A stretch of DNA of 64,000 nucleotides. It comes from Psammoneis japonica. Its lineage: Eukaryota. Below, piece by piece: positions 1-64,000 of the stretch; within the stretch, counting starts at the first letter, position 1; each line of letters begins with the position of its first letter. The DNA lies in contig QPGO01000025.1 of the NCBI GenBank assembly GCA_008632985.1, forward strand, positions 62,001 to 126,000. Direction: 5' to 3'. The notes under the pieces were generated by a model. The model had not been told where the DNA came from, made no database searches, and saw only the letters and a program-made list of their open reading frames with translations. The position numbers were made by a program, and so were the translations under genes.

Positions 1-1530
<1,530 letters not shown>

Positions 1531-15120: not shown

Positions 15121-15416
15121 ATTTATCTTCAACATCAAATAAACGGCCAAGTTTGTGGTACAATTATGCCTCTTACCACTCGACGTTTTTGCAAATGCAC
15201 CTGCCCTACGCGATTCTTAAGACATTATAGAATCGCGCTGTAACAAAAAATGTCAAAAGTTGTTGGACGGATCGCTCAATAAGTGTACCGTAAAATGACA
15301 CAAAATATCAAAAAAATCACGTAGAAATCTACGTGCGCGACATACGACGTGATTCAAAAAACTATCGATGTCACAGTTCAGTACCGTACGAGGTCCCACC
15401 TAGACCTGGAACGCGT
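15121..15416. mobile_element. Right end of a young TIR DNA element, unmutated, nested in the transposase relic
   Basis: Normal TpA/CpG content. 15318-15416 is homologous to 51034-51130 and ends in GAGGTCCCACCTAGACCTGGAACGCG. Confidence 0.7.
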
Positions 15417-15540
15417 CTGTTGCATCTTTTGTGAAATCTTCACAGGAGGCAGGCATTTCTGATTTCTGCAAGCTTGACATTTTCCATGCAGCTCCCATGT
15501 TCATCCTTGATCCCCCCTTTTCTGCACCCCAGGGATTGCC

Positions 15541-16567: not shown

Positions 16568-19420
16568 TGCACCCCAGGGATTGCCTCAATCATTTCCCTT
16601 TCAGCCAGTGCTTGCAGCAGCCCCTTGGAATTGCCAAGCCAGCCTGGTGTCATTTTCTGTGCCTCCTTTTTTGGCTGGAATGTTTGCCTTTTCACATTTG
16701 ATTGCAGATCCTTTTGGCTGCACCCTTTTGAGTCACACAGCCTGGATTGCTTTCCCTCAGATCAGCCCACATTTCCTCAAGGAAGGAGCTTGTCAATGGT
16801 CTTGGTTTGGTTCGCGCTTTCATTGCAGCCTTTCTTCAGGATCCATGTGAGGTGAGGTCCTCTTCATCAACATCCTGCAACAAAACATGTCATTGGCATC
16901 TCTTGTCCACTTTGCAACTGGCAAGAGTTGTTGTGCTCTCCAGCACATTTGTCTGTCAGGGTGTGCTTGGTGTCATCTTGTGCTTCCTTCACCACCACAG
17001 GCTCATCTTCTTGTCAGCCAACAACCCATCCTTCTGCTGCTTTGAACAGCCCAACAAGTGGTCAAAAAAGAAGATGTGCTCAAATTCTGGCAACACAATT
17101 CACCCAGAACATTGGCGCAGTCCTCCAGCTCCTGTGTTGCCACATGGGTGCAATTCCAACATGCTTGGCAGTTCTGGCCACACTCAAATTTTGCCATGAA
17201 TGGGACTCATCTCTGAATCTTTCTTGGTGCTTCATCCCCTGACTTCTTTTGCTGCTTTTTTGCATGCACTTGGCTCCTGTCCCATTGTGATTGACTCATT
17301 TGAGCAGCTCTTGGTTCAGCCCTCACTGCAAGCCAGTCTTGCGACAGACAAAAAGAGAAAGCATGATGCTGAGGCCCTCATCTTTCAGAACAAACATGGT
17401 CTCACCATTTTGTCTGACCCAAGCCAATGGCCCTGTCTTGTTCCCACACAACAACCAGTTTTTCACCTGCAGGAAACCAAAAGCTTGCTTGGCTGCCACA
17501 CTGCTTGGCTTTCAGATCACACTGGGTTGTGCAATCTTTTCATGAAAGCCACTCTCCAGTTGCCCACATGAAACTCCATGAATGTGCTGTCATCTTGAGC
17601 AAATGTGGAGTTCTTCCATTGGGTTGGGGCCAATGATTTGTTCATGAGGTTGGCTGCTGCCGCCTCATCTTCCAGCAGGATTGGAGCCCCCACATGTGGC
17701 ATGACTTCTTTGACTCAAGTCACTCTTGGTGGTGCAGCTTGGTGGCTGGCTTCTCATGACCATCAATGCAGAACCACTTTGGTTTGTGAATGTGCTCAAG
17801 TCCAAGGAGGAGCCATGATGTTCTGTGGGCTGCTGCTGGTGCAGAAACAGAAAGTAACCCAAGTTTGCTCTGTTCAAGAAACAGACTTTTTGTGTCTTCC
17901 TTTTCTGCAGCTGGTTCTGGAGGTTTGCCCACAGACTTGGTCATCATCATCCAGCACCACACTGTCTTTGTTTGCACTCAGCAATGCCACAGGTGTGGCC
18001 TTTTTTGTGAGTGTGATTGTGCTCCAATTTGGCTGAAAAACCCCTCAAGTTCTTGATTGGGTAGCATGCAAAGCACTCTTTGCTTCTGGGCTCCAGCTGA
18101 AAAAGGTTGACAGTTGTGGCTCAGATCAGCTCTGGCAGCTCTGGAGAAAGCCACACTCTGTCTTGGCCAAACAATGATGTTGCTGCTGCACTGCACCTGC
18201 CAGTTGGCTGTCACTGCAATGCTGTCTTCTTTTGGCCACAAAGCAGCCGCCCAGAACATTGACGGCACTGATGCCAACTCACACCATCCTCAGCCTCATT
18301 TCCTTCACCCTTTGGATTGTCAAGGGCTGTCTGAAAGGCTGTCATGACACACAGCGGGTGATGCCAAGTGGCACCACCTTTTCAAAATTGGCAGCACCAG
18401 ATTTTTGTTGCCCTGGGTGTTGGACAAAACAGACTGACATCTTTGTGCATGATTGGCGACAGCAGACAAAATGCCAATCCTGTCTTGTGTCATTGCCTTG
18501 ACATTGACATCATTGGGGCAAACACAGAGAGCAGTGCACTGGTGTGGCGCATGACCATGTGTGGAGCCCCAGCAGCAGCCAAGCTGTGGCACAACCCCTT
18601 CTTGGCTGATGGGCCCAACTCTTCAAAACAGACATGTTTTCACCTTCTGTTGCCAGCATTGTTTTGTCCACTGTGACTCACCTGCTCTCACAATGTCTGG
18701 ATTGGCTGCAGGAAACTCAGGGAGCACCTCAGCTTGTCACACTGTTGACCTTCTCATGGTTTTCTTGACCACCTCACTCTGCAGACAGCGTCATTTTCTG
18801 TCATTGGCGGGCAAAGAAAACAATGACAGTGGGAGCCGCAGAGCAACAACAAGGAATTTGCCATCAACGACGTGCAAGTGTTTGGTTTTGTGCAGACTTG
18901 CATGACCCCTGCAGTGGTTGGCTGGTGGGTGCTTGGCATGACATGTGAAATTTTGCCCATTCTTCCATGAAGTTTCTCCACCTCTCTGCTCGAAACTTGG
19001 GCTCCCTCATCACAGAAACTGAGCTTTGTGAGGAGTTGCAGTGCTCCACCCAAAGTTCCGCTGTCTGACACAATGGCCTTGGACCCGCTTGCACACGAAG
19101 AAGACGAGGTGCCTTGACAGATGGATTGAGAAGGTAATCCAGGCCCCTGGCATCATCGTCGAGCGAGTTCTTCGTGGTCTCCGACAAAAAATGACGTCTT
19201 GTACCAGTTGCGTAGAAATCTACATGAAGTTTGATCGATGATCGATGCTCGCTCATCGCTCAATGATGCACTGACACATCATGATCACTGATCACGCAAC
19301 AAGCCAACTGGACAACATCAGGCCATCGCTGTTTCGCTGTTGTGGTTTCCAACTCCCATCGTTTACCTTGCGTTGCTGTCTTACGTGCTGCCATCCACCA
19401 CACGGACTGCTGGTCTAACA

Positions 19421-20263
19421 ATGTCCCCGTCTTTGCCGCTACAATCGAGAACTACGCCCGGGAACAACGGGGAGGAGTCAGAAAAGAAGCCTCCAGCTTT
19501 CCCATCAAAGAAAGAGGTTGCAGATTGCATTAAAGTGTTGTCTTACGTCGAGTACAGGCTCTCTCACGGTAAAAATCGGGACACAATTCATTCAAACCTC
19601 GAGGAGGTTTTGTTGAAGGTTGCCAGTATTCAGCATCATGCAAAAGAACTTGTACGGCCTGCGGAGGTGATCGCAGAAGAGACTGAAAAAGAAAAGGCCT
19701 TCGCCACGAAACGAAAGGCTCAAATGGAAGTTGTCAATCGTCTGGAAAAGAAGCGTGCTGAAATGGTTTCAGAATGCCGAAAATTACTTCCCAGAGGATA
19801 CACCGAAAAAGTGAGGCGCGAGGTGCTTCAAGAAATGGGATTGCCGTTGGACACGCTAACCATGGGTGACGTAAACTATAACCCCGCAAAGAAGAGCGCA
19901 AAGCGCAAGGCACAGACGCAAGCTCGTAGAGAAGAGAAATTGTGCAAGGCTGGCCCTGTTGTACTGGCGATCGCTGAGGCTAGAAGACGATGCCAGGAGC
20001 TTAAGAAGGACGGGAGGATTCCGAATGGCTCGACCGAGAGAATCAAATTGCAGGTTCTGGAAGAGTTTGGTTTACCTCCCGATACGCCCTTTCCTACAAA
20101 CTACCAGATAAAGACAAGGGGTGCTCATGTGAAGGTCACAAAAGCCCTGTCCTTGGACTCTCATGAGACGTCAAATAATAATGGTGTGGACGAAGGGGGA
20201 GTCGCGCGCACCTCGAACTCCACGGGAAATAATGCAGGGAGCAATGCGGGGCACTCAAAGTGA
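19421..20263 (+). CDS. Orphan basic protein family, copy 1 (~280 aa)
   Basis: ATG 19421 (MSPSLPLQ). Near-identical to 27184-27954 and homologous to 35389-36219. Internal duplicated motif P.G..E...(E/Q)VL.E.GLP.DT. Confidence 0.75.
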   Translation: MSPSLPLQSRTTPGNNGEESEKKPPAFPSKKEVADCIKVLSYVEYRLSHGKNRDTIHSNLEEVLLKVASIQHHAKELVRPAEVIAEETEKEKAFATKRKAQMEVVNRLEKKRAEMVSECRKLLPRGYTEKVRREVLQEMGLPLDTLTMGDVNYNPAKKSAKRKAQTQARREEKLCKAGPVVLAIAEARRRCQELKKDGRIPNGSTERIKLQVLEEFGLPPDTPFPTNYQIKTRGAHVKVTKALSLDSHETSNNNGVDEGGVARTSNSTGNNAGSNAGHSK

Positions 20264-21539
20264 GGTGACTTGATTGACGGCACAGTAGATGAGGCACTTG
20301 GAAGTATCTCTTAGTTTTACGGTACCTCATTGGCGAATGTGTAGATGGTGGAAAATTACGTTCATAAGGTACTCTTCTCATCCTTCGACGTGCAGCATCT
20401 TTTTGGATTAGCACGGGGCCCTGCTGGCGTCTTGGTCCTTTTTGTGAAAGGAAGTGCGACCGCAAGGAATTCGCCCTGTGGCAAATGTTAGCCTGAAATG
20501 TTGATTTCTTTTCTGCTGGTGTTATAGCAACAAAACCAACTTCTGAATCGGCTCCCATCTTGTCTGAACACGTGTGTTCACATGTCACCTGCTGGCCTGA
20601 GCTGATCTTTCTCTTCCACCAATCTTGACAAACAGTCTCGACTGCATTCCATGAGAGGGGGCTTCCAAAACCGCATTGACTCACATGTTCCTGATGCAAA
20701 CTTGAAACATCAATTTCTCATTTCTCTTCCATCGGTGTCAAAGCAACAAAACCAACTTCCAAGATGGCTTCCATCTCACATCTGAGCACATTGGCACATC
20801 ACTCGCTGGACTGAACTCAATCCTTTTCTTCTGCCCATCTTGAAAAATGTCTTAACTTTTTCCCAAATAACCAGCACAAAACTGCAATGCTGTCAATGTG
20901 CAAGAAATCAACCAGCACCATGAGTGGATGAAGTGCTGCATGGAAAGAGCAAAAGAAACAATGCAGTCATGTCAACAATGCCTCACTGAAGTTGGCATCA
21001 TTGCCCCATGTTGTGTTGCAATGCATGTGTGCCAATGCACGCAGGCAGCCATTGCCAAAAGAAAATGAATGTGGCATGACTGTGATGAGCAAGTGCAAAA
21101 ATGCACACATTGCATGGCTGTGATTCTGGCCAGCTGATTGCATGCTACACATTCGTTTGGCATGTTTCACGAGAAAAACAATGTCACACACTTCTTGGCA
21201 AAGTTGTCAAGCTTTTCCTCTGCCAAAGCAAACACTTTCCTGAACATCTTTTGCACCCAGTCCACCAGGATTTTTTCTCAATTGAGAATTGCAGGTGTGT
21301 TTTTCCCACCAGAGCTTGGCCCAAAAATTCTGCAGCCACAAAGAGCACACCATGTGTGGAACCTGCATCTCAGAGTGGCGTTGAGAGCTCGGCCACAAGC
21401 CATCATTGCTGTTCACTCTCTGTCAAATTCCACACAATTTGCGCCATCCTCAATCATTGTCTTTGACCATCTGGAGCAAGAACACGCTGGGGTGGCACAG
21501 AGGAAAGAGCAGCAAACTTGAAAAAGTCAGCTGTTCAGC

Positions 21540-24500
21540 CACACATCTGAAACTTCCTTGATGACTCTTGGTTTGTGCAACAAATTTTGAGCAGGGTGGC
21601 AATGCTGCTCCATCCCAATGGTGCAAGAAGCTCACATCTTCCAAAGTTTCAAGAGCACCATGGTGCAGCAGTCCTGGTGGCTCAAGCATTTTGTTGTGTC
21701 ACACACACACATGCATGTGCAGCAACTCAAACTTTTCATTGATGCAGTCTTGCACAAATGTGCATTTGCATTGCCCACAAAGCACCATCATTGTCAGATG
21801 GCTCAGCACAAGCCAGCATTGTCAACAAAAAAAAAAAGTTGCACGAAGTTGCTGCAGGTTTGCAGCCCATGCATTCCACCCTTCATGGCTCTTTGCAAGT
21901 CCAAGCCTGCAGCAGCACTGCCATGCCCCTGCAATGTGGATCTCTGAAACCCAAACAACCAGGTTCCTGCAGCCAATCTGTGCTGCCAAATTGCTGGCAG
22001 CGCAGCTGCATGAGCTTTTTGCAAGCTGTGGATCAGATTATTTTGCAAAACAAGCCTTTTGCAAAACTCAGTGTTTTCACAAAAAGTGAGAAAAGCGGCT
22101 GTAAATCTGAGCTAAAAATGACATGTGTTCCTCCAACTTGCAAACATGTCCCAGCTGTGCATGCAGTGCACACAAAAAACATGAAAATTGTGCAGTTCTT
22201 TTTGGTCTCTGGCTTTCAACTGAACTTCTGAGTCTTTGCAAAAACAAGAATGTTTGCAACTCAGACAAGACTTGCGTGTGTGGCACAGTGTTGTTGTTTC
22301 TGTCACATCATCTCTGCTGCCTCTTCATTGCACCAAATGAGTTGCAACAAAAGGGACAGTTTCTGGTCTCTCTTCTAACCTGCAAGTTTTGCATGACGTT
22401 GTGCCATTTGAGCACAGTTGGCACACCCCAAAAAAATTGTTGCACATGCATTGTGGCAGCTGTTCTAGAACTTGCAAACTAAAAAACATTGGCTGGGTGC
22501 TGTTGTGTGTGCACGCCACAAAAATTTGAGCAACATTTGAAAAACTGCTTGTTTGCCCATGCATTGATCTTGGCACTTGCTTGTGGCCAGAGCACATTTG
22601 CAGCTGAGTCCTTCTTCATCAGGTGACATGTTGACCTCAACAGCAACACATCAGCACTGCTCCTTTGCCTCCAAACAGGCACTTTTTTCTCTGGTGTGCA
22701 CTTTTTCTTTGAGTTGACAAGTCAGGTTGATGTGTCATTTCTCCTTTGCCATTTGCAGCTGTTTGCATGAAGCCCAAAAATGCTGTGGAAGTGTGCTGCC
22801 ATTGTGCTTGGCAATTTGGCAATCATTTCATGACACAGCAACTGGCACTTCTTCTTCAGCCCATTTCTTCACCTTTTTCACATGACAAGTTTGACACACA
22901 ATGGTGGATTTCAGCACATGTTTTGCACACAGCTTTCTCCTGGCTGTTGCCAATGCCTTCTCCAGTGGACATGGTTGCCTCAACTTTCACACCATCCTCC
23001 TCAACAACGTTGAACAGACTGAGCCATGCCACCATGCATGGGGTCCTTGGGCGCGGTTGTGTGGATTGTTGTGTCATCAAGACTCAGCACGTCTGAAGGC
23101 TCCCTCAGGAGACTGGCTGGTCCCCCCATCCAAAATGAGGATGCAATGTTCCGCGCATTGGTCTCCCAATGAGCCACACTTGTGCGTTTGATCTCCCTTT
23201 GGATTTGACATTTTTCCGGTCCAGGACACCATCACCACGTCACTGCACCAGATCGAAATGGTTCCTTCCCCCTCCGACTCATCATTCCCGGTTGAGATTG
23301 ACCCCATGAATGATGGCAGATGGAAACATGTCCCCCATTGCCCGAAACTCTCAGTTGAAACAAATCCACCCTCACCCGACCTGTTCACAGACCGCTTGAA
23401 AGCATTGCCTTCCTGGGATTCCTCTCTCTTTTCTGACATTGATTTCCACATTTCCTTTTATGAACCAGTGGACCATTTTGCATCCAGTCGCCTGGTGGCG
23501 GGGAGTGACGAATCTGCACTTCATCAGGACACTGCCTTCAGATGGACTGTTACATTCAACAGCAGACCCTCAGTGGATTGTGCTGGTCCGGTGTTTGGTC
23601 AGTTGCCATCATCCCATCGGGCTGAGGCATGTGGTTTTCTTTCCCTGATTCGGTTTGTCTGTCATCTGATTGAGTTCTGCAAGATGTCACAGTGTGAAGG
23701 AGTTGACAACTGGTGTGACAACAAGGCCTTGGTCCAAGTTCTTTCCAGATTGTCCTGCAGCCGCCCTTCCATTGACCCATCAGCACAAGAGCATTCCGAC
23801 CGAGACTTTCATCTGTGACAGCATGATGCCAATGTTCTTTCATCCAATTGGGATGTCAGCAATGAAATGCACTTCACGCTTGAAGCCATTCCTCAGGCTC
23901 TTAATCCCTCCTCCTCCGGTCAGGCTCCGTCAACAGCTTGGGCAAAAGGACACCAGGACAGACAGGCTCCAGTGGAGACCCTCCCATTGAACACACAAGT
24001 CAACGTCCATGCAGATAAGTTGGCAGGACGATGCCAGGGACAACATGACTCAGACACAATGGAGGTGCTTCCCTTTCCCCATTGTCAATCATGCCTGTGC
24101 CTCAATGATGGTGCGGTCAATGCAGGAATGAAATCCACGGTCAGATGTGCCGCTGCAGCTCCCGCTCTCCTGGCACATGTTCGGGAAAGGAATGACTGGG
24201 ACGAAACTGTCACAGAAAAGAACGATTGGAAGGTCCATGCGACATCAGTGTGCAGGCATTCTAAGAAACATGTCTCCATGGTTAAACTTGTCCATGAGCT
24301 CCTCCCAACAAACAAGACAACACATCGGTGCAATCCAGTTTGGCCACATCATTGTCTTGCATGCGAATGTCCTGTGGAGGATCGAGACCATGTTCTAAGG
24401 TGTCCAGCCAATGAAGCCTGGCATCGCAAATTCCTGCAAGGTCCACACAAATGCTGTGACAAAATTGACACCATGCCGCCTCTTTGCGACCTGCTGTTGA

Positions 24501-26600
24501 CTTCACTTGAAGCATGGCTGCGAGGCAAGATGCAGTGTGAATCTGATGTCATCCCAATGCTGAGAGCACTGTGGAAAGCCCAGTCAGAGACAGGATGGCA
24601 GCAAGCATTCAATGGAAGGTGCTCCACCCTTTGGAAGGTGCTCCGCCCTTTGGAACGTTTTTCAGGAGATTCACCTTCGTGAGATGGGCCTGTTGGAGAA
24701 ACACAGGAAAGAAAATCGACCCCCTCCGGTTTGGGGAGTGCAGATGGGAACTTACATTTGGAAGTCCTGGTGGGAACTGTGGGAAGAACACAATCAAGAG
24801 GTTCACAGTCATGATGCAGATTCAAGGAAATCATCATTGCCTGTCAGGCGGAAGCTGAGCTCACGGCTGTTTACAACAAACGACAGGATCATTTGGCTAA
24901 AGATAGAGAGATGCTGATGGATTCAGTTGATGATCACATGTCCCACTCTACATTGCAGATTATGAACTGGGTTGCTGTGGTCAAACCACATCTGAAAGAA
25001 AGCCTGAAGAAGGCAAAGCGCGAAGTGCTTCATGGCACTTGCTCAATTGCCAGCTGTTTTGGATGGGTGTCATCTCACAGTGACGTCCCGTCTGGCTGAT
25101 CCCAGTGAGCTTCTGCACACTTAACTGTGCACTGGAAGTGTGGGTTGGCCGGCGCCGGCTCAGCTGGCAAAGGAGTGATGGCACTTTAAACACAGATCTG
25201 TTTTTTTTTTTCACACCATCCTCCTGTGCCAGATGGTGTTTGCACAAGGACAATGTTGGCATGCAGCACAGACCTCTTGGGTGCACAGAGATGTTGTGAG
25301 AGTCAGCATGACACAGCCTCCTCCACTCCCACATTTGATCACCACATGTGCAGCAAACTCTTGTCAGTGTGCAGCTGCTCCTGTGCACAATCTTGTGCCA
25401 AAAGGAGCTGCCAAGTGTGTGGCCCACACCCTGGAGAAACAGGCTGTTGTCATGTGTGAACACACGCAGCTGCTTTTGAACCAGCCATGTTGTGCTGGCA
25501 CACAAGCAATTTTCCACAACAACATTGGTGCAAATGCCAGCAGTGAGAAGCCACACCTGGGTGCACTCCACTTGCTTCTTGCTTCACTCCACATTTTCGC
25601 CAGCAAGGAGCACAGCACAGAAGCCCACATTGCAAATGAGCAGTTCTCACACACCCCTGCATTCTGTCAAACATGGCAGCATCATTTGCACAAAGTGCCA
25701 ACCAAAGCAATGTCAACACAACAAAATCTGCCCTTGAAGTGCCTGGCTGTGCAGCAGCATGCATTGCTGAGCAAATGAAATTCCACATGTTCACAATCAC
25801 ACATTGTTGTTGCGCATGTCAGTCGCATGACAATCGTGGATGCACACAAAAAAGTCAGATGGATCACACAGAATTGAGATCAGATGCCCAAAATTGCAAA
25901 TGCAGTTGACAGACAATGTTGACACATGAGAAGTCAATGTTGGTTGCATTCAGACAATCTGTTGTCATGATCAGATTCTCTGCAAGGCCTTCTTTGTTCT
26001 GAAGGAGCAGCTCAAATGCTTTGGGCCATTTAGAGCTCCTTCGGAGAATCCCAAAATCGCAGAGCAAAATTTAATCTCACAGTTTCCACTTTTTGTGAGT
26101 TGCTCTGCTTTCATTTGCACTTGTTGTTCAAGCACAGTGCAGCTGGGGTCATCATCACCTCCGCTGTCTTTTTTTGGGGGGGGGGGTTTTGGGCGTGCAG
26201 CTGCCAAACCCCACAGCCAAGGTGGGTGTCATGGCACCCTGCACGGCCAGCACAATGCAAGAGCATTCACAGAGTGCACTGATTTGTGCTCTTTTTGACA
26301 AGCTTGGTTGCTGTTTGCAACAGCACCAAAGAAACAAGAGTGCATGTGCTGAAAATTGGAAATGGCTTGACAACCACCATCTTGTTGGCTGTTCTTTGCT
26401 TTTTGTCAGCAGCCAAGCTCTCAACAAAGCAACAAAAAGGAGGTTTTCTTTTGTGCCAGCTTGGATGACTTGGTGCATGGCAGAAAAGCCTGTGGCAAGA
26501 GTGTGGTGTCACATTCCTTCCTTGCATGTCACCACAAAACACACAGGGTTGATGCCCCTCTCCCCCAGCACCCTGCACTTGAGACACGGCACAGACACCT
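21540..26600 (-). mobile_element. Degenerate dispersed repeat, family X copy 2, interrupted by a LINE
   Basis: Homology to 12900-14200 at both ends. TpA/CpG-depleted. Boundaries approximate. Confidence 0.55.
23002..25210 (+). mobile_element. 5'-truncated non-LTR retrotransposon (RNase H + CCHC knuckle; possibly Ambal-like) with oligo(T) end and 15-17 bp TSD
   Basis: RNase H motifs SDES..AF.W, SSHRAEACG, WCDN, KGHQD, NVHADKLA. Knuckle CLAC...EDRDHVLRC, then Q..GW..AFNGR. TSD (TT)TCACACCATCCTCCT at 22985-23001 and 25209-25225. Confidence 0.88.
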
Positions 26601-27183
26601 CAAAGTTTCTGCCATGTGCCACGACTCCTGCAGTGAGGGCAGGGTCTGTGTGTGTGTGCACAAGAGCGTTGAGCACCTGTGCCCTGCCTCTCTTTTGGAG
26701 GTGAGGAAAGAATGTGTGTGACACGGGCAAGTGTGGAAGGGAGAGAGCGGCAAGCAGGCGTGGCATGAGAAATGAGTGGTCCTTTTTTTCTGTAACATGT
26801 CAAATGAGCGGCCCGCTTTCTCTGTCACATGTTGTTTCCCTGTGATGTGAAGCGTGAAAAGGAGTTTCTACCGCATGCTTGATTTCTGCTCGTGACAATC
26901 CCCATAAGTCTCCACCAACAAAGGCAACACTGCGGCAACAGGACAACAACATCAGCCCGCATCGCTATCGCGCCGCACGCGCATCGCTGTTCTTCTCGTC
27001 GCTGTGCGCTGTGCTCTGTCTGTGCTGCTGTTCTTGTTCTGGTTCGATGTTGTACAGTGTATGTTGTTTACTTTTCTGCTGTTTATCGCTATTGTGGCTT
27101 GTTCGTATTCATCCCAACTCCCATCGTACCTTGCGTTGCTGTCTTACGTGCTGCCATCCACCATACAGAGTGCTGGTCTAACA

Positions 27184-27954
27184 ATGTCCCCGTCTTTGCC
27201 GCTACAGTCGAGAAACACGTCCGAGAACAACGGGGAGTCAGAAAGGAAGCCTCCAGCTTTCCCATCAAAGAAAGAGGTTGAAGATTGCATCAAAGTGTTG
27301 TCGTACGTCGAGTACAGGCTCTCTCACGGTAAAAATCGGGACACAATTCATTCAAACCTCGAGGAGGTTCTGTTGAAGGTTGCCAGTATTCAACATCATG
27401 CAAAAGAACTTGTACGGCCTCCGGAGGTGATCGCAGAAGAGGCTGAAAAAGAAAAGGCGTCAGCCACGAAACGAAAGGCTCAAATGGAAGTTGTCAATCG
27501 TCTGGAAAAGAAGCGGGCTCAAATGGTTTCAGAATGCCGAAAATTACTTCCCAGAGGATACACCGAAAAAGTGAGGCGCGAGGTGCTTCAAGAAATGGGA
27601 TTGCCGTTGGACACGCTAGCCATGAGTGACGTAAATTATAACCCCGCAAAGAGGAGCGCAAAGCTCAAGGCACAGACGCAAGCTCGTAGAGAAGAGAAAT
27701 TGCGCAAGGCTGGCCCTGTTGTAATGGCGATCGCTGAGGCTAGAAGACGATGCCAGGAGCTTAAGAAAAACGGGAGGATTCCGAATGGCTCGACCGAGAG
27801 AATCAAATTGCAGGTTCTGGAAGAGTTTGGTTTACCTCCCGATACGCCCTTTCCTACAAATTACCAGATAAAGACAAGGGGTGCTCATGTGAAGGTCACA
27901 AAAGCCCTGTCCTTGGACTCTCATGAGACGTCAAATAATAATGGTGTGGACTAA
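27184..27954 (+). CDS. Orphan basic protein family, copy 2 (C-terminus shortened by GAA->TAA)
   Basis: Near-identical to copy 1. Nucleotide homology continues to ~28200 (versus ~20450). Confidence 0.72.
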   Translation: MSPSLPLQSRNTSENNGESERKPPAFPSKKEVEDCIKVLSYVEYRLSHGKNRDTIHSNLEEVLLKVASIQHHAKELVRPPEVIAEEAEKEKASATKRKAQMEVVNRLEKKRAQMVSECRKLLPRGYTEKVRREVLQEMGLPLDTLAMSDVNYNPAKRSAKLKAQTQARREEKLRKAGPVVMAIAEARRRCQELKKNGRIPNGSTERIKLQVLEEFGLPPDTPFPTNYQIKTRGAHVKVTKALSLDSHETSNNNGVD

Positions 27955-28479
27955 GGGAGTCGCGCGCACCTCGAACTCAACGGGTAATAATGCAGGGAGC
28001 AATGCGGGCACTCAAAGTAAGGGTACAGTGGATGAGGCACTTGGAAGAATCTCATACTTTTTACGGCAGCTTATTCAAGAATGTGCAGATGGTGGAAAAT
28101 TACCTCACGTTCACAAGGTACTCTTCTCAGACTGCGACGTACAGCATCTTGTTGCATTAACACGGGTTTAGTAGCGTCTTCGTCCTTTCAGTGAAAGAGA
28201 CCGGATACGTATTATGATACCTTAAACACCAATCGGACAACTGCACCATGGGTTCACGGTGCAGAAGTTTTTATTTTAACTCTACAATGACCGAATGACG
28301 CGCACCTCAGCTCAATCTGATACAGTCTGTAGCTAAGCTGTAGAACAAACGAATTCTCTAAGTTTGAAACATGAATTTTCACTCCTCGATCACAGTCAAC
28401 GGCTGTTTTTCGGTGCGTCAGTGCCTCTCAAAAGTCGTGCGTTTTCCCGCAATTTTCTTGCAAAAATGGCCAGTGCCCC

Positions 28480-31733: not shown

Positions 31734-33626
31734 AGTGAAGTGTGAAAGAATGCCGGCATGTTCTTCCACGACTGTGAAAGCAAGACTCACCGATGGCCAC
31801 CTTCAGAAATGGGACATCTTGCTCCACTGTTGAAAAGGGTTGGTTCCTCATTGCACTGATGTGCCGGGCTTTGCAGATTTCACTTCGACCATTGAATCAC
31901 CCAGCCAAGCAGGACATGGAGGACAATTGCTTCACTGTCATTTGCCTGTGTTGCAACCAGTGCAAAAAACAAGAACTGCATTGTTTTGCTCCAATGAAAG
32001 GATCTGATGATCCATTTGCCAAATTGGTTGGTGCTGTTTTGTTCAAAACAAAGATGCTGGATTTTTTGCCACATGTTTGTCAAGAGAATGTCAGCAGTTG
32101 CTGTGGTTGCAAGTTGCCTGCAGCTCCAAAGATGCAGTTGTGATGAGGCAACTGCCAAAGAGTTGCAAGGTGTGGACAGAAGCAGGTGCTTCAAGACTGT
32201 TGTGTGAATCGCATTGGTTTGTGGCACAAAAATGCTCAAGAGCTGCACTGTTGCAAAGTGCAAAGATGTGGGGGAAAAGAAGTTGAAGTGAGCTCTGTGG
32301 CAGATGACAACAAAACTGGAGAGACAGAGCCTCATCACTTTCAAGCTTGGGCAGCATGCTTGACAAATGCAGAAAGTGTTGCTCATGAGAGTGGGCTGCT
32401 GCATGTTTCAAACACAGGGGCACCCCGAGGACAAATGGCGCCTGCCAATTGAACTCTTGCAAGGCACAAAAGACTTGTGTGTTTTCTTCTCTCTTGCAAG
32501 TTGCTTGCATTGTCTTGACAGTGCGGCAACGCAAATCTGCATTGCACACAACATCCAGGTGTCTGCAGATTGTACAGCTGCTGGCAATCATCAGTTTGCA
32601 ACACTGATTTCCTCCCATTGATGACAGCCCATGCAGCTTCACCATCCACATGGGAAAAAGTTGATTTGCAACAAGCCCAGCAGCTGCATGGCCAATGATT
32701 TGATGGGCACAAAGTTGCTGCTTTGTTGTTTGTCAAACATTCATTGTGTGGCTGTTTGCAACAGCTGGACATTTGACTCCACAATTGTTCTCACATGCTC
32801 CCAGAAAGAAATTTGGTGTGTTGGAGCTGGGCTTCAAGTGGCACACCTGATGAAATGCTTTTCACGATGTGGATGACTTGTCACACTCACAAGCCCAAAT
32901 CAATTGCAAAGCAGGCAAAATGTAAAAAGTCACAGCACACATTGGGCTGTTTTTCTTTTTTGACAGCACCAAGCCTGCATTTCTGCACCCTCAGCTGACA
33001 CAGATGCCAGCACCAAAATGTTCCCAGCGAGGACTGTTGCAAGAAGCCCACGATCATGTTGGCACAAACATCACAGCTGAGCATGCTGCATTGACTGTCT
33101 TGCTCATTTTTGACATTGTGCTGGAATCAGGGGCTGAAACACAGTGTTGCTCATCCTTGTTTTTCCACCTGGTGTCTTTGCATGTGTTCAAAACATGCAT
33201 GCTCATGTCTGGCAGAGAGGTGGTTGAGACACTCCTTTTTAACTGAAATGATGTTGACTTGCACTTGCCTTGCACAGGGTGCAAACCAAAATGTCAGATG
33301 CCCTCATGTTGTGCAACGTAAAATGTGTGTCACACACTGGGCATTTCACTTGCTTGCTGTGACACATGCTGGTCCATCCCTTGTGTGTTTCAACCCACAC
33401 TGTTTCATGGATGGATGGCCTGCCTTATTTTGGGGAACGATCATTGTGCGATTTTTTTAGCTTCAGGTTTTTTCAAGCAAGACTCTCTCTAAAAGACTAA
33501 AAGAGGCACTGTGTGTGTGCTGTTGTGACTCATTTGCACCCAAGAGTCATCACAAGCCTGCCGGCACTGCAAAGTCAAAAGCAGTGGACGGCAAAACCGT
33601 TCATGCGGCCTTCACACTTCACACTT
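31734..33626. mobile_element. Putative TIR-bounded ~1.9-kb degenerate DNA element
   Basis: GTGAAGTGTGAA at 31735 and its inverse TTCACACTTCAC at 33611, with adjacent partial GCC.GCATG matches. Interior is TpA/CpG-depleted. Confidence 0.5.
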
Positions 33627-34439
33627 CGTAACAGAGCCAAGGTGCTGCTGCGCCCAACATGAAGATGATTGCTCATGATCAAATCTCGCACCGACTCCTC
33701 ATTTGGGGTGTGGCAGCTGCTGCCATTTTTCCTTGGCTCCCATTCAACAGCAAATGGAGCATTGGCGGAAGGCTGTCAAACAATTTTCGCAAGCTTCTTC
33801 TCTCAATTGCAGTCATTGATTCACGCCGTTTGTTGGTCCATGGAGACGAGGTGCATTCTCATGCTTCAGACCTCTTCTCCAACACCCTTGGTGTTGTTGA
33901 GGTCATTGGACTGACCTTTCTTTGCTTTCTTGCTCCCCATGTCATGCAGACTAATTTGTCTGTGTTCACCCACCTCTGCCCTGGCGCCAGTTTTTACATG
34001 CCGCTCGTGGAGCTGGAGTCTTGAGCTTCTTGGGGGTGGTCCTTTCTCGCACAGTCAATCCCAGATTTTGGTGTCAAAAGAAACTGGCGAATGGCATTGC
34101 AGCACCACCCGTCATCACCATGGTTTGCCAGTGCAACTGTGTCATGACAGCAAGATTGCATGGACATGGCTTTGTCACTGCCCAAACCATGCTCCTCATT
34201 GAGTGCTGGCATTTGGGCGTGCAAGTTTTCTGTGCCTTCTCCCATGCCTTTGATCATTTTGCAAATGATCAGACCTTTGTGGCATGGGATGTGCTTTTGC
34301 ATTCAGCTCGATCTTCTGCTTTCCTTTCTGACTGGGTTCGGGTGCTAGTTCATGCCATGTTTTTGAACAGCCTTGATGAGCTCAATCACGTTGGATCCTT
34401 TCAGCCAGCAGGGTCAACTGGCTGCAAAGTTTTCTGCAG

Positions 34440-34708
34440 CAATCAGATTGCAATCAGTCATTTGCATCGCTGTGGAGCAGCAATTAGTTGATTGCAATTG
34501 TGCAGCGATTGCGCGGTCTGATGAACAGACCGCAAAGAAATCGAGCCATTTTGCTTGTTTCAGCTGTGAAAAGAGCTCGAATTTCGATTGCAATCGATTG
34601 CAACAGTCAACTGTGATTGCGACCTCGGCTCTTTCCCAACAATCAGGTTGTTGCAATCGAGTTTGCAACAGCAATTGCAATCAAAATGAGGCTGATTGCA
34701 GTCGATCC
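34440..34708. mobile_element. MITE-like insert built of GATTGCAATC / CAATCGATTG palindromic repeats
   Basis: Imperfect terminal inverted repeats ATCAGATTGCAATCAG .. CTGATTGCAGTCGAT. Many internal copies. CAGCA flanks both sides. Confidence 0.5.
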
Positions 34709-35388
34709 CAGCAATTGGTCAACACTGCTTTCAGCAGGGTGAACCCAGTGAAAGCGCTCTCCTGGACCTCCTGCCGGCAGTTGGACAGAACTTGTTCCTC
34801 TTGCTTCCAGTTCATTGTGACCTCTGTCCAAGTAAAAAAAGGCTGGAGCAAGCTCTGCACCAGGCAGACATGCACTGCCTTGGCACTTTTTGCACTGATT
34901 GGCAGCTCCTCTTTGAACTGTCATGAGCGCAGCTTGCTTTCTGCCAAAAATCCGTTTTGTGTGCAGCAACAACCAAACATGCGGCTTCACTTCAATCTTG
35001 AAACGTGATCAAACTTCTGCACAACACTGCAGCATGCAGAGCACGCAACTCTGCCGTAGAAGCCAGAGAGAGTGGCAGGGGGAAACAATCGTTCCGACAA
35101 AGAGAAACCATTGTTTGACTTGCGAAAAGATGATAAAGAATGAAAATGCCGGTGCTTCACATAATGTGTTATGTTATCCGGGTGGAGGTGGTAGGGACGG
35201 ACGAAAGTACAAAAAATGCGTAGAAATCACCATACAGACAGACCGCCACTGCGATTCTCACGCAATGGCTGCTACGGTAAGTGGCGACACCCACTCCTCA
35301 TCGCAGTTCGCTGTCACTGCTCACTGCTGTACGGTATTCACATGTTGAACATTGCTCGCTCCCTTTCTTACAAGCAGCTATTCTTATC

Positions 35389-36219
35389 ATGCCCCCGTCC
35401 TTGCCACTGCAACAGAAAAACCCACAGGCTAACAACGAAGATTCTGGAAAGAAGCGTCCGGCTTTTCCGACGAGGCAAGAAATTTCCGCATGTCTAACGG
35501 TACTTTCTTATGTAGATTTCAGCCTTGTGCATACCAAAAACCAAGGTACATTGCCCCAATCACTTGAGGAAGTTCTGGTGAAAGTTGCCAGTATTCAACG
35601 GAATGCAAAGAAATTTGTACGGCCTGCGAAAACTGCGGAGGAGATTGCAAAAGAAAAAGAAGCCACGTTGAAACGAAAGGCTCAAGACGAGATTTACAAA
35701 CGTCTTAAAAACGAGCGTGCTCGAGTGCTTGCAGAAGAATGTCGCAGTAAACTTCCCAAAGGATACCCAGAAAAAGTAAAGCGAGAGATGCTGACAGAGT
35801 TTGGGATGCCGCTAGATACGCCGATGGAGGTCTTTCGAACTAACACAAGCACAGCAAAACCACGAACGAAAAAGCGAAAAATCCCTGTGCCTGTGCGCAC
35901 CACTGGCCCGGTTGAAATGGCGATCGCGGAGGCCATGAGACGATGCGACCAGCTGCGTAAAAACAGGGTGAAAAGGCTTCCAAAGGGCGCACCAAATGCT
36001 ATCAAAGTGGCTGTTTTGGAAGAGTTCGGCCTTCCTCTTGATACACGCTTTCCAAGCCACTACCCTTCGCGTACGCCCGCCCGCAGAGCGAGAACGACTC
36101 GTGTGAACGTAACCAAGGTCCTGGAATTGGAAGCTGACGAGGAATTAGCGGGAGACGAAGGGGATGTGACCTATACATCTGTTTCGATGGAAGATACAGG
36201 TCGCAACGAAAGGAATTAG
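35389..36219 (+). CDS. Orphan basic protein family, copy 3 (diverged, ~276 aa)
   Basis: MPPSLPLQ..PAFP...LSYV..LEEVL.KVASIQ..ECR..LP.GY.EKV.RE...GPV.MAIAEA.RRC..VLEEFGLP.DT.FP shared with copies 1 and 2. Confidence 0.78.
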   Translation: MPPSLPLQQKNPQANNEDSGKKRPAFPTRQEISACLTVLSYVDFSLVHTKNQGTLPQSLEEVLVKVASIQRNAKKFVRPAKTAEEIAKEKEATLKRKAQDEIYKRLKNERARVLAEECRSKLPKGYPEKVKREMLTEFGMPLDTPMEVFRTNTSTAKPRTKKRKIPVPVRTTGPVEMAIAEAMRRCDQLRKNRVKRLPKGAPNAIKVAVLEEFGLPLDTRFPSHYPSRTPARRARTTRVNVTKVLELEADEELAGDEGDVTYTSVSMEDTGRNERN

Positions 36220-46667: not shown

Positions 46668-47816
46668 ATGGGCATTAATGTTCACGACCTTGTTCCGTCT
46701 CCCAGAAGCGGCGGCAGCCATGTCGATCTCTCATCCCTGATTGAAGACAAGGAACCAGTGGTTGTCACTCCCGATGAGAAGCGACCCAAATCGAAAAAAT
46801 CGAAACGAATAAACGGAAAGAAAATTGTTGGAATTTTGTTTCTGACGGTATTTCTGGCGCTCCTCTGGGACGCAACAATGACCCCGCCGGAAAAGCGATT
46901 TCTCCGACCGGATTCGTCGGATCGATTCCTTGCGTGGGTACAAAACAACCCGTACATGGGATTGGGTGCCTTCATGGTGGTGATTGCATCGTGTGTGGTG
47001 TTTATGATTCCGGTTGGAACGCCGCTGACGCTGGGATGTGGCTATGTGTACAAGGGCGCCTATGGATGGTTCTTGGGTGTGACGGTGGCCACGTCTGTGT
47101 CCATGTTGGGATCGGCGCTGGGTGCAGTAGGGTGTTTTCTGTTGGGGAGGTATTTGATGCGGGATCGGGTACGAAAGTGGATTCGAAACTATCCTCTCTT
47201 TGACGCGATTGATATCGCTGTTTCGGAAAAGGGATTTCGAATCATGGCCATGCTTTACTTGACACCCGTATTACCTTTGGGACCAGTCAGCTACATGTGC
47301 GGAACCACCTCTATGAAACTGTCGAGTTTTGCGTTAGCCAAGGTGGCCTCCACACCGCTCATGCTTCTCTATGTGTTCATTGGAGCTTCGACTGGATCGT
47401 TGATTGCGGATGCGAAAAAGGACGGAGTGGCTGATGCTGTGGAGGAAGCGGAGCAATTGGAACACAACAAAACAATGATTTGTTGTGGGATTCTCTTGTC
47501 AGCAGTGACGATTGGAATAATATCGCATTACATCAAGAAGGAATTGTACAAGGTAAAAGCAACGCGTGTTCGATATAGATTAGTTTGCTGGTGCGCACGT
47601 ATGTTTTGTTCGATCCCAAGACACTTACTCACCATTTCCTTCGCTTGTTTCATTGTCGACTTCCAGATATTTGAGAAACAAAAGCAAGATGGTAAGGAGC
47701 ATACACCACCGCGTTCTCTTAGCGAGTCTCCACGTCGGAGAACTAGTGCCGATGAAACCGTCGAGCTGGGTTTGACAAGCGCGGGATTGGCACACCGTAA
47801 ACACACTGGCAGTTGA
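46668..47816 (+). CDS. TVP38/TMEM64 (DedA/VTT, SNARE-associated) membrane protein; in-frame intron 47553-47666
   Basis: IP.GTPLTLG.GY, G..LGA..CFLLGRYL.R, GF.I..LYLTPVLP...YMCG.T and LYVFIGA motifs. Confidence 0.88.
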   Translation: MGINVHDLVPSPRSGGSHVDLSSLIEDKEPVVVTPDEKRPKSKKSKRINGKKIVGILFLTVFLALLWDATMTPPEKRFLRPDSSDRFLAWVQNNPYMGLGAFMVVIASCVVFMIPVGTPLTLGCGYVYKGAYGWFLGVTVATSVSMLGSALGAVGCFLLGRYLMRDRVRKWIRNYPLFDAIDIAVSEKGFRIMAMLYLTPVLPLGPVSYMCGTTSMKLSSFALAKVASTPLMLLYVFIGASTGSLIADAKKDGVADAVEEAEQLEHNKTMICCGILLSAVTIGIISHYIKKELYKVKATRVRYRLVCWCARMFCSIPRHLLTISFACFIVDFQIFEKQKQDGKEHTPPRSLSESPRRRTSADETVELGLTSAGLAHRKHTGS

Positions 47817-48361
47817 GCATATAAAAGTCAAATAGTGTTCTGTACATTATACTCTATTTTCTTGTGCTTCTCGTGAACTATATTCTCTTCTTCACTACCC
47901 TATCGGGAAAGATGATTCGCGCGACCTTGTCCGAAAAGTCATTCATAATATATATAATATCCACCAATTGCTTCAGTTTGTCAATCCGGTGTCAAGTGTC
48001 CGGCATTTGCTATCACCGCTACTCGATGAGAGCTTCTCTTTGAAAAGCTACTGACCAAGTCGCTGCCGTAGATGTCTCGAGCGATCTCCAAATCATACAA
48101 CAAGTGCGGGATTGGCACGCCGTAAACACACTGGCAGTTGAACATAAAAATATGATTTATGTATATTATTCTTCCTTTTACCCTCTCTGGAAAGATACTT
48201 TACGCGACCTTGACCAAAAAGATTTCAGAAGATATCTCAATTCCTTCGGTTTATCAATCCACGTCAAGTGTCCCGCGTTTGCAATCACTTTTACTCGATG
48301 AGAGGTATTCTTTGAAAAGCTACTGACCAAGTCGCTGCCGTAGATGTCTCGATCTCCAAAT
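47775..48361. repeat. Diverged tandem duplication (47775-48093 / 48100-48361) of the convergent 3' ends of two genes
   Basis: GCGGGATTGGCAC.CCGTAAACACACTGGCAGTTGA and TTTGAAAAGCTACTGACCAAGTCGCTGCCGTAGATGTCTCGA each occur twice. Confidence 0.9.
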
Positions 48362-50299: not shown

Positions 50300-51700
50300 T
50301 TGAGGTTGATGAGGGTTGAGGCGGGTTATTGCGTCACACGGAACACGGAATCCACACACAAGAAGTAGCGATTCACTCACATGAAGAACGGAATCCAGAC
50401 ACGGTCGTTGTTTCGTGCCTCTCTTGCTCTGCCCGGCACGGCAGACCCATGCGGCGACCACGCCTTCTGCTGTCACTCCTTGCGGCACATGACAACACTC
50501 TCCAATGCTGTCCGGACGGTTTGTTTGCTGCCCTTCAGGCTGTCGGCCCAGCACCCTCCGGCATCTGTGCAGACTCGCCGGGCATGCACCACGAGCCTGC
50601 CAACCTCACCCCCCACCACTCTCCCCTCAAATGCCCCACCAACGTTGGCACTCAACTCACCCTTGCTCACACCACTGCTTCACCCTTGGGACACACTTGC
50701 CTCACCATTGATGCCACAGTCCCTCTGAGCTGCCGAAGGGTTCCAGCCCCAGGTGGAACTCCGTGTGACATTGGGCCCACAGAATTCCACATGCGAGCTC
50801 CGCAGCAAATTTGTGCTGCAATGAAAATGTGTGTGATTGCCAACAGAAAAAGAGGCAATTTTACGAATGCATCTCCTCCTTCATGCTTGGAGGACATCAT
50901 TGACAGTTTGCCCGGGTGTGTTCTTCAGACATTAAAGAACATGCCCAGTGCATTTTCATTCTCACAAATGTTGAAAATGGAAAGCCTTTGGCTTCGCAAA
51001 ACAGGGAGCATGAAACAATTTTGTAGAATGTCACACGTAGAAATGTGCGTGTGCAACATGCGACACGATCCAAAAAACTGTTGATGTCACAGCTCAGCAG
51101 TGCGAGGTCCCACCTGGAGCTGGAGCGCATCTGCTGCCCACCCCCTCTCAGCTCCCAGCTTGCCTGCTCCCATGCTCAACCCTTTTGCCAAGGCACATGA
51201 TCGCACAAGCACCAAGCGAAAGTTTCGCAGCAACCACGACTCTCAGCATGAATCAACGGCTGTGGCTGCCTTGATTCAAGCGGGTCTTTGCATTGTTCTT
51301 TTTGCCATTGACTGCCTTGGAGCACTGGGATGTTTCACCACCTGTCCACCACTCAGTCCCGGCCAATGTGCCATCTGGTCTCCGTGCCCCCCGATCTGCC
51401 TTGGATGCCCAAACCATCCTTTCAGTGCCCAGCTGCCCATCATGATGCATGTGCCTGTGTCTGTGCCCAACATTCACCATCAGGGATCATCTCAGCTGCC
51501 AAGCATCTCCAATGTGACCTGGTTTGACCTTTCCCCCAGCACACCACTGCGCCGCTCCAACAGGGCCTCTGGAGCATTGGCCTGACAGTTGCCAAGTCCA
51601 TTGCCAACCAACCTGCCCAATGCTCTGCCAAATTGCACACGCACCTCACTGCACCTTGCTGCACCCCACCCCAAACCCCTTCCTTTTCTTGTCTGCATGA
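50300..51700 (+). mobile_element. Relic 3' end of a CRE-like non-LTR retrotransposon (restriction-like endonuclease)
   Basis: DGLFAALQ..EP.NL.P...KCPTNVG..LTIDATVP (degenerate RPAD..IDVT), then KRKFR..LFAIDCLGALG. Confidence 0.62.
50737..51130. mobile_element. ~390-bp MITE nested in the CRE-like relic; same family as 15121-15416
   Basis: TIRs TTCCAGCCCCAGGTGGAAC / GTCCCACCTGGAGCTGGAG. The right end aligns with 15318-15416. Confidence 0.75.
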
Positions 51701-52174
51701 CTCAGTTTTCTTTTAAGATTTCATCATCCCACTGCAGCTTTCGTCATCCACACCGTGCCACCAGGTGAACACAACAGGGCACGTGCATGCATTGTTCTCT
51801 TTGATGATCAGCCCTTCTTTGCCAACTTCTTTCTGTTGTCTCATTTTTAAGACCAACATCTCTCTCTCTCTACCTGCTGTAGATCTTGCAGCTGTCCACC
51901 AGACGCCGTCACTTTCCTTGAGCTTATTCCTCGACGTGAGCCACAAGATTTGGATTTCGGCGCGCATACAAAGTCAATGTGCTGGGAAACAAAAAGATGC
52001 TGAGGGTTAAAGGAATATACCTAAAGGTTTCTACTGCAAAAGTGTGTGTTCTATGAGTTTCCAGCTTTTCAAAACGAAACAGGAAATGCTTCATTGTCGA
52101 AGATTGTCGAAGCCAAGGCTTCGGTTCGGTCACGCTTCATACCGAGAGAAGATAATTTTCTTGTTGAGGCCAAC

Positions 52175-63002: not shown

Positions 63003-63429
63003 TGAACAAAATTGGGGTGATCACGGATTAGACTGAAGAAAAGCAAACAAAGTACTGGTGGCAGTTGTTGCATGATTAGATTTCGTCCACATGAGACGCG
63101 GTGCTTCTTTTGGTCCTGCTGTGAGCACGTGAGCGAGCCCACTCTCCATCGTGAGTCTATGCGTCGACCGTTGTCGTGTGCGCTGCGCACACCCGGAAGT
63201 CTCCTCATGAGACTCTCGCGGAAGTAAGACGGACGATGTACCAGGGTCGTATGTAGGCGATTTGTTGCCATGTCCTCCTGGTGTGTTTCGTGTAGAATTC
63301 TCCGTAGAAAAGTTTTTTGCGCATGTAGAAACGTGTGGGGATTCCGGAGGCATCGCAACAAACCATCCGTCTGAGACTTCCGCGAGAGAGTCCATGGGAA
63401 AACTGTGGGTGCGTGCGAGCGTGGAGCGT

Positions 63430-64000
63430 GCATGAAGAACGGTTGACGCATGGACTCACGACAGAGAGAGTGACATGAGCCTGTGAGCTGCAGCAGCTGT
63501 GAGTGACTCAAGATTTGTGACGTGCAGGTTGCTGACAAATGGACAGATGGCAATGCTGTGATGTTCGGCATCAACCAGCCAGCGGCGATTCAAGTTTGCC
63601 ACCCAGTGGAGGCAACTGCATCATTGTTTTTCCTCGACAACGATTGAATGAATCGTTGATGCTGTTCAAGGCCATTGAGAAACATTTGACATCTCACGTT
63701 GCAAGATGAGAGTCATGTCAGTTGGGGTGATCGCTGATTGGACTGAAAAAAGGCATGAAAACAAGGAAAATGCTGGTGCGGAGGATGATTGGATTTTGCC
63801 CACTTGGCTGAGACGCAGCACTGCACTGTTGTGAGTCACAGCAAGTCATGATGAGACATGCCCTGTCACCTGGCAGGTGCAAAGAGGGTGTGCAGTGAGC
63901 AGTGCGTGGCACCCTTTGTGGAAACACACGTCCGAAAGTGAGTGCACTCTGACCAGACAAACAACCCAAAACAAGTGCTGGTGCTGAGATCACCACTTTC
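63430..64000. mobile_element. Start of another TpA/CpG-depleted island; runs off the window
   Basis: Essentially no TpA from ~63430 to the end. TG/CA-rich like the other TE relics. Confidence 0.5.

Follow-up and report, generated by a model that had tools for sequence, protein, structure and literature searches.

In a 64,000-nucleotide stretch of the genome of the diatom Psammoneis japonica (GenBank assembly GCA_008632985.1, contig QPGO01000025.1, positions 62,001 to 126,000 of the forward strand) we found blocks of nongenic DNA in which TpA and CpG dinucleotides have been lost to TpG and CpA. This stretch is called the window in the following, and positions are counted from its first letter. 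The window also contains two copies of a transposon with terminal inverted repeats (TIRs), copy A, compared here over 15318 to 15423, and copy B, compared over 51034 to 51137, and this pair is a small, genuine exhibit of the wider TpA and CpG loss. According to the reading that we favour, with a probability of roughly 0.7, a regional transition process converted B within its block, A is unconverted, and most of the differences between the two copies record this process. A regionally targeted process yielding almost only transitions would act on nongenic blocks of 0.6 to 6 kb; both TpA and CpG would be turned by it into TpG or CpA, close to completion. B would be situated inside such a block and be about four fifths converted, its lineage being the derived one. 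A would be an unconverted copy, either because its block had been converted before A arrived or because this spot escapes the process.

At a resolution of 200 bp the blocks map to about 12.95–15.09, 15.43–19.15, 20.55–26.9, 28.4–29.1, 31.85–35.0, 50.4–51.7, and 63.4–64.0 kb. The depleted stretches of a 1-kb profile showed observed-to-expected ratios (O/E) of 0.00–0.18 for TA and 0.05–0.79 for CG, and ratios of up to 1.4–2.1 for TG and CA. Summed over 17,155 positions, the blocks contain 67 TA (O/E 0.06), 284 CG (0.28), 1,920 TG (1.80), and 1,936 CA (1.81), compared with 1,736 TA (0.55), 2,632 CG (0.97), 3,418 TG (1.18), and 3,350 CA (1.14) in the remainder of the window. The share of pyrimidine–purine (YR) steps is nearly equal in blocks and remainder (0.245 and 0.238, at a G+C content of 48.7% and 48.2%), and consequently TG and CA gain what TA and CG lose.

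The block left of A (12981 to 15090) retains 4 TA and 9 CG beside 246 TG and 266 CA in 2,110 bp. The block right of A (15424 to 19134) starts at the end of the element with a partly converted portion (15424 to 16100; 10 TA, 32 CG) and is nearly fully converted from 16101 to 19134 (4 TA, 35 CG, 351 TG, 316 CA). B is surrounded by an intergenic block (50367 to 51713) that contains, outside the element, no TA in 359 + 573 bp and has lost its CG partly (19 and 12 are left). Two further blocks are situated at 20550 to 26900 (28 TA, 98 CG, 689 TG, 749 CA), containing paralogues of segments at 13.0–16.6 kb, and at 31850 to 35000 (14 TA, 54 CG, 372 TG, 344 CA), and the block at the end of the window (63400 to 64000) has no TA and 21 CG. 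The genes beside the blocks, at 19292 to 20263, 27112 to 28200, and 35281 to 36219, contain 29–41 TA and 55–59 CG each, and their frames are open. The two members of a 1.1-kb duplicate with 92–94% identity (19347 to 20453 and 27112 to 28200) share 31 TA and 53 CG. The visible part of A forms an island with a TA O/E of 0.82 and a CG O/E of 1.65 between flanks with 0.0/0.09 and 0.12/0.15, the composition changing at the right end of the element. The process is regional and dinucleotide-specific, consists almost only of transitions, and spares genes.

We considered whether the depletion could have arisen other than by mutation, namely by selection or avoidance (of nuclease, restriction, or RNA-sensor targets) or by GC-biased gene conversion together with ordinary CpG decay. 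In expressed RNA and in RNA viruses, TpA and CpG are reported to be suppressed more often than any other dinucleotide (PMC3829696), and the TA O/E is already low outside the blocks. Nevertheless, the depletion is near-total in noncoding, unrecognisable DNA: the sequence of the blocks is complex rather than simple, and none of their 81 open reading frames (ORFs) of at least 90 amino acids scored above a curated Pfam cut-off, one giving a weak sub-threshold match; five block ORFs searched separately likewise had no Pfam match. The expressed-looking genes adjoining the blocks are spared. Biased gene conversion would not be limited to TpA, and the G+C content is unchanged. The independent resolution to TG or CA described below is, moreover, a mutational footprint, and we regard a nonmutational origin as very unlikely. 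Rfam gave no match at the gathering score in the whole window, so that no known structured RNA accounts for the transition-rich divergence.

The two strings compared in the preliminary description were recovered at their positions, and the homology continues slightly past their ends, to 15423 and 51137. A and B are 81.1% identical over 106 columns in BLASTN (E = 1e-23 in a comparison of the segments and 8e-21 when the window was compared with itself). A standard global alignment comprises 104 aligned positions with 86 identities, 15 transitions, and 3 transversions, and one gap of 2 nt; in an alignment tolerant of transitions the gap falls elsewhere, and 16 transitions and 2 transversions are counted. 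In purine/pyrimidine coding the identity is 96%. The core of A is unconverted, with 7 TA and 11 CG in 106 nt, and that of B, likewise on the forward strand, is partly converted, with 1 TA, 6 CG, 13 TG, and 11 CA in 104 nt. One TpA of A is kept in B and five are TG; the seventh is CA in the transition-tolerant alignment or lies inside the gap in the standard one. Five of the 11 CpG are kept, two are TG, three are CA, and one is AG or inside the gap. Formal alignment thus reproduced the earlier count made by hand, in which six of seven TpA had become TG (five) or CA (one), about five of 11 CpG had become TG or CA, and one 2-nt indel was present. The TA and CG of A account for 36 of the 106 positions and for 11 of the 18 substitutions (binomial p = 0.017). 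When the alignment was extended, using the one that favours transitions, 2 of 20 TA and 6 of 20 CG were found to be kept.

B is a complete TIR element of 415 bp (50726 to 51140, forward strand) containing 4 TA, 13 CG, 45 TG, and 43 CA, and its homology to A covers 50841 to 51137. The arms of its left TIR (50726 to 50772) and right TIR (51086 to 51140) are complementary at 76% over 34 nt and at 93% over 14 nt; the counterpart of the right TIR in A is situated at about 15370 to 15423. In a transition-tolerant alignment the left end of B scored 52 against the reverse complement of either right end, compared with 22–24 ± 4 (largest 37.5–38.5) for 200 shuffles. A is visible over 303 bp (15121 to 15423, forward strand), of which the compared core comprises the subterminal part and the right TIR. 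Its left edge lies under an adjoining run of 30 N (15091 to 15120), and a single N is present at 15830. Leftward the homology, with indels, reaches 15133 in A and 50841 in B. The left part of B was sought upstream of the N run of A and gave a score of 28 (shuffles 25.8 ± 4.4); it is either absent there or lost in the gap.

The abundance of the family was followed with contigs from sequencing runs (four runs of one sample) that were aligned at 80% likeness, 1,927 contigs coming from run X1; the depth given is a sum and not a copy number. The summed depth was 87,000–323,000 over 15121 to 15408, 38,577 over 15409 to 15432, and 70–460 over 15433 to 15552. The element therefore stands about 1000-fold above the adjacent stretch, and the right end of the family is where the homology between A and B ends. 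That the family extends beneath the N run is shown by contigs overrunning the left end of the compared stretch, with loose ends before 15122. With inverted repeats at the ends of B and a very abundant family, the designation as a TIR family was borne out. The A and B segments each come from a separate copy and represent the right half of a noncoding, very high-copy TIR transposon of about 415 bp in a diatom nuclear genome. In its length of 415 bp, its terminal inverted repeats, its lack of coding capacity, and its very high copy number the element resembles the nonautonomous TIR transposons known as miniature inverted-repeat transposable elements; the ends may themselves be converted. No matching flanks that would indicate a target-site duplication were seen by eye at B, and the left end of A is hidden by the N run. 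A scan of metagenomes with an 18-letter TIR pattern returned 70 loci, all of them chance matches of 19–30 nt. The carnitine acyltransferase encoded in the window has a best match of 54–56% identity, and among its 120 best matches the named relatives are all diatoms down to rank 118 (Amphora, Chaetoceros, Cyclotella, Nitzschia, Cylindrotheca, Pseudo-nitzschia, and Staurosira).

An 18-nt near-palindrome from the element occurs at four sites of the window, exactly at 3380 to 3397 and 15318 to 15335, with two mismatches at 51034 to 51051, and with three at 19209 to 19226; 0.03 matches are expected by chance. Two of these sites are located outside the transposon, a short way upstream of ORFs. The flanks have nothing further in common. 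The near-palindrome could be a binding site carried and spread by the element.

The A/B pair by itself gives no polarity. At the level of the blocks the direction is a loss of TA and CG to TG and CA: only loss can produce a block such as 12981 to 15090, with 4 TA in 2,110 bp, beside ordinary genes. A second line of evidence comes from paralogues. In pairs of block paralogues, TG in one member and CA in the other (double differences) were found at 13 of 93, 23 of 98, and 4 of 13 aligned TG/CA sites (40 of 204 in all), compared with 2 of 40, 1 of 39, 0 of 126, and 1 of 25 sites (4 of 230 in all) in paralogues of normal composition (Fisher p = 2e-10; p = 4e-4 when the comparison is with the two pairs of similar divergence). 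By hand calculation, the per-site transition rates predict about 8 double differences, and 40 were seen. The only explanation that we find is that an ancestral TA or CG was resolved independently in each paralogue. Calculated by hand from the composition, about 36% of the TG/CA in the blocks is in excess, which predicts a disagreement of about 18%; the value observed is 19.6%.

The TIRs of the element itself provide a third line. In a three-way alignment of TIRs, A has TA at 15387/8, the right arm of B, read as its reverse complement, has CA, and the left arm of B has TG. We rejected the left TIR of B as a general outgroup for TA and CG sites, since the left arm is also converted and the discordant site alone is informative. 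Variation among copies points in the same direction. Of the 102 variant rows and 1,991 contig pieces for the family of the element, 40 and 32, respectively, were examined; 33 of the 40 rows are transitions within a YR dinucleotide, and all ten TA sites among them are split between TA and TG/CA. In a second, moderately repeated family right of A (15553 to 15829), there are four dinucleotides in which both positions differ between copies, and nine variant rows are changes of CG to TG or CA. The summed depth of this second family is 1,500–5,200, and its copies differ mainly by exchanges between CG and TG/CA and by double changes between TG and CA.

In the reverse direction, TG and CA would be ancestral, and A would have gained TA by CpA to TpA changes like those of repeat-induced point mutation (RIP) and would have gained CG as well. 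Besides the missing polarity of the pair, this direction has in its favour that A is derived at two of three polarisable non-target sites and that TG/CA is the majority by depth at five of the ten TA sites of the family. It would, however, need two opposite kinds of transition at selected TG/CA sites while 12 other TG/CA stayed fixed, and it can yield neither a block as poor in TA as that left of A nor the TG/CA double differences. Nor does it account for the arms of B reading CA and TG where A reads TA, and the 1.1-kb duplicate with its shared TA carries no RIP signature. We consider the reverse direction extremely unlikely. A family consensus with TG or CA at the TA sites had been named in advance as pointing to a gain of TA in A. 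TG/CA makes up 36–68% of the depth at the ten sites and is in the majority at five of them and not at the other five. Where many copies are struck by a single directional process, a consensus is moreover not a fair test. The loss of TA and CG to TG and CA, as proposed in the preliminary description, is upheld by the composition of the blocks, the double differences, and the discordant TIR arms.

In some long-read base callers, modified bases lead to systematic miscalls that look like transitions, and it was considered whether modified CpG and TpA could have been miscalled in the same way during sequencing or assembly. The best run contains 56% of the sampled 31-mers of 15121 to 15829, and an N run adjoins A. 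But TA/TG and CG/TG polymorphism among the copies of the family is present in the run's own contigs, which makes such an artefact unlikely, and miscalling predicts neither a graded depletion nor a dependence on context nor TG/CA differences between paralogues. Taken together, an artefact is scarcely credible.

The preliminary description had further stated that TpA decays at least as fast as CpG. On the pair alone this could not be confirmed (six of seven versus five of 11 changed, Fisher p = 0.15), but the blocks support it, since survival relative to the remainder of the window, calculated by hand from the composition, is 0.11 for TA and 0.29 for CG. In each 1-kb window with a TA O/E below 0.2 the CG O/E was higher than the TA O/E. 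The loss of TpA is ahead of the loss of CpG. The spread of the CG O/E from 0.05 to 0.79 at a uniformly low TA is suggestive of two processes acting on the same target, of which the loss of TpA would be the faster.

The TpA dinucleotides that survive in the blocks are not a random sample with respect to their neighbours. Flanked by a purine on the left and a pyrimidine on the right (R-TA-Y), 2 TA survive in the blocks and 524 are found in the remainder of the window; the corresponding numbers are 38 and 919 for mixed contexts and 26 and 293 for Y-TA-R. The differences are significant between R-TA-Y and Y-TA-R (Fisher p = 8e-10), between R-TA-Y and mixed contexts (p = 7e-6), and between mixed contexts and Y-TA-R (p = 0.005). 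TpA loss thus prefers T-A-pyrimidine, R-T-A-Y being lost first; as a rough estimate from these counts, a pyrimidine directly 3' of the A makes its loss about three to four times faster. The variants of the family agree with this rule at six of six informative sites. Both informative changes between A and B (15331 and 15364) also fit; the remainder are contexts that allow either strand, one of them CTAG. The preference for a 3' pyrimidine, and not the strand, explains the asymmetry of five TG to one CA in the pair, and strand-coordinated editing, which had been considered for the five TG and zero or one CA, was dropped for this reason. For CpG, survival in the blocks relative to the remainder was 0.47 in GCGC and 0.43 in CCGG, and 0.19 in TCGA and 0.18 in ACGG/CCGT.

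A and B had originally been presented as a before/after pair. This stands insofar as most differences record the loss of TA and CG, with the lineage of B derived; it does not stand insofar as the two are separate insertions rather than one sequence, and A is not pristine. Two possibilities have to be weighed for the history of B. First, B could have been converted in place; second, it could have been inserted already converted, coming from a source copy or a subfamily on which the process had acted before. The process and its direction would be the same in the second case, and the pair would represent two subfamilies.

Several observations weigh against conversion in place or against the pair as a record of it, in addition to the nonsignificant difference between TpA and CpG within the pair. 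The 2-nt deletion of B is common in the family (3,832 of 5,867 summed depth), as is its G at 15344 (49,184 of 133,257, or 37%), and contigs that leave the compared stretch at 15381 read like B. B thus shares states with a large part of the family depth, and these may have been inherited rather than produced in place. The shares of TG/CA at the TA sites examined are also what subfamilies would give, and a simple depth consensus does not favour TA. Within the element B retains 4 TA and 13 CG, compared with 0 TA and 31 CG in its flanks, so that B is either younger than its block or was treated differently. A has changes of its own: among the three polarisable non-target sites, 15420 and 15405 are derived in A and 15411 in B, and at 15199 and 15310, where A has CA, 45–48% of the family depth has CG. 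At 15401/2, the other TA site of the arm, both arms of B are alike and hence uninformative, the TIR test polarising one of two TA sites. Finally, none of the 32 contig pieces listed of 1,991 bridges the right junction of A.

Against insertion in a converted state, the conversion of the unique flanks of B shows that this locus was reached by the process, and one TA was resolved differently in the two TIR arms of B. The converted flanks and the discordant arms favour a conversion of B in situ rather than in a source copy. Since the T-A-pyrimidine rule steers independent hits to the same outcome, the same variant in different copies need not be inherited, and sharing between B and the family need not mean descent. 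The contexts of the four TA kept by B (TTAA, TTAC, and twice GTAG) are the four slowest ones. We hold conversion in place to be the better account and an earlier conversion of the source to be less likely.

A full-text search of the literature for a TpA-directed process found a single report, a preprint on Bigelowiella natans, and none for diatoms. Of 231 new mutations found there in two integrated viral regions by means of mutation-accumulation lines, 230 were A>G or T>C, each of them on TpA (Mettrop et al., bioRxiv 10.64898/2026.01.13.699255, 2026). The direction deduced here, from TpA to TpG or CpA, agrees with this experiment. As far as the preprint describes it, the B. natans process shares several features with the one described here. 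It is regional and not genome-wide, with a sharp contrast to neighbouring genes that is also seen in the present window, and its long-term footprint consists of clusters of 1-kb windows poor in TpA and rich in CpA and TpG. It is not triggered by duplication, and it is not constitutive, some lines being hit there and an unconverted copy being present inside a converted block here.

The differences are equally clear. The host is a diatom and not a chlorarachniophyte, and depletion is near total. CpG is also lost (O/E 0.28), which may be a second process on the same target; the main text of the preprint contains no occurrence of CpG. Nor does that main text describe neighbouring bases, whereas we see a preference for a 3' pyrimidine. 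The targets reported for B. natans are integrated viral DNA, whereas the blocks lack recognisable viral or transposon genes and B is a transposon copy. New mutations were measured in B. natans, where they arise at about 1000-fold the background rate, and here the process is known from its footprint in the sequence alone. What is new relative to B. natans is accordingly another lineage, a near-complete conversion, the joint loss of CpG, the T-A-pyrimidine rule, and targets without recognisable viral genes.

Other known systems match in part. Fungal RIP is likewise a transition-only, dinucleotide-specific degradation of nongenic or repeated DNA that leaves skewed dinucleotide ratios. It is established that RIP produces C:G to T:A transitions, mostly from CpA to TpA, and enriches TpA (RIPCAL paper, PMC2621366). 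Here, in contrast, TpA is destroyed and CpA and TpG are enriched. The 1.1-kb duplicate is untouched, and A, a member of a high-copy family, is unconverted, so that repetition as such is not the trigger, unlike in RIP. Methylation-driven CpG decay also turns CpG into TpG or CpA, acts regionally, keeps the YR total, and spares islands, and A looks island-like. It covers the CpG half only, however, and TpA loss is the stronger, being complete in some places with a partial CpG loss. The animal systems ADAR and APOBEC resemble the process in producing clustered, deaminase-type transitions in repeats and retroelements. ADAR differs in its substrate, double-stranded RNA, in its preference for a 3' G, and in its restriction to animals. 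A point of likeness is its preference for a 5' U (as cited in bioRxiv 10.64898/2026.01.13.699255). RNA editing of the ADAR type that is copied back into DNA would show the 3' G preference and pass through an RNA intermediate; here a 3' pyrimidine is preferred, and the unique flanks of a DNA transposon are converted too.

As to the mechanism, the CpG loss would probably be due to deamination of 5-methylcytosine in silenced DNA; CpG methylation is known from diatom transposons. By analogy with B. natans, the TpA loss would be caused by an enzyme that deaminates A to I in DNA or, alternatively, by an equivalent attack on T, for example an oxidation to a mispairing base. The tRNA adenosine deaminases act in a universal U33-A34 context and TadA-derived editors prefer T-A-C, both of which are leads rather than results. 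Since both self-complementary pyrimidine–purine steps are lost jointly, a single enzyme system, not two, could be at work. One candidate could be a deaminase for which A as well as C in DNA is a substrate. For B. natans an ADAT2-like enzyme is proposed for the deamination of A in DNA, and an action of ADAT2 on both A and C in DNA is cited in the same preprint (bioRxiv 10.64898/2026.01.13.699255). A more speculative candidate, suggested by known chemistry, would be an oxidation of the 5-methylpyrimidines T and 5-methylcytosine to mispairing formyl bases. Tentatively, and at somewhat less than even odds, we propose that the blocks are the product of a locus-targeted DNA-editing defence of the diatom that has run to completion: it would convert every R-T-A-Y, more slowly the other TpA, and every CpG to TpG or CpA across silenced nongenic blocks, sparing adjacent genes and newly arrived transposon copies.

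Some further features of the window were noted. Its genes are compact and show no visible introns. Three tandem paralogues at 19292 to 20263, 26908 to 27954, and 35281 to 36219, about 8 kb apart, encode a protein without a Pfam family; the first two are 92–94% identical in DNA and the third about 67%, and they are normal in TA and CG with converted spacers between them. At 47773 to 48361, between genes for a VTT-domain protein and a beta-lactamase/hydrolase, a unit of about 300 bp is present twice in tandem with 79–92% identity and normal composition. Stop-to-stop ORFs of 90–310 codons are abundant on both strands of the blocks and are not genes; they arise because TAA and TAG are gone there. 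Three homologies within the blocks (13139 to 13469 with 21714 to 22054, 13800 to 14374 with 26187 to 26807, and 16486 to 16568 with 25127 to 25208) were missed or underrated by ordinary BLAST and are 85–91% identical in purine/pyrimidine coding. For annotation this is a warning: such blocks give long false ORFs, and, as several homologies are visible only in purine/pyrimidine coding, they conceal repeats from ordinary similarity searches.

The window carries the same footprint as B. natans, in a diatom, near completion, and coupled to the loss of CpG, and the T-A-pyrimidine rule is a constraint that any candidate enzyme must explain. If the system is the same as in Bigelowiella natans, it would be ancient within the SAR eukaryotes. 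If confirmed, P. japonica would provide a second, experimentally tractable lineage in which the enzyme and the targeting signal could be found, and editing-based genome defence in eukaryotes would be wider than fungal RIP and animal APOBEC/ADAR.

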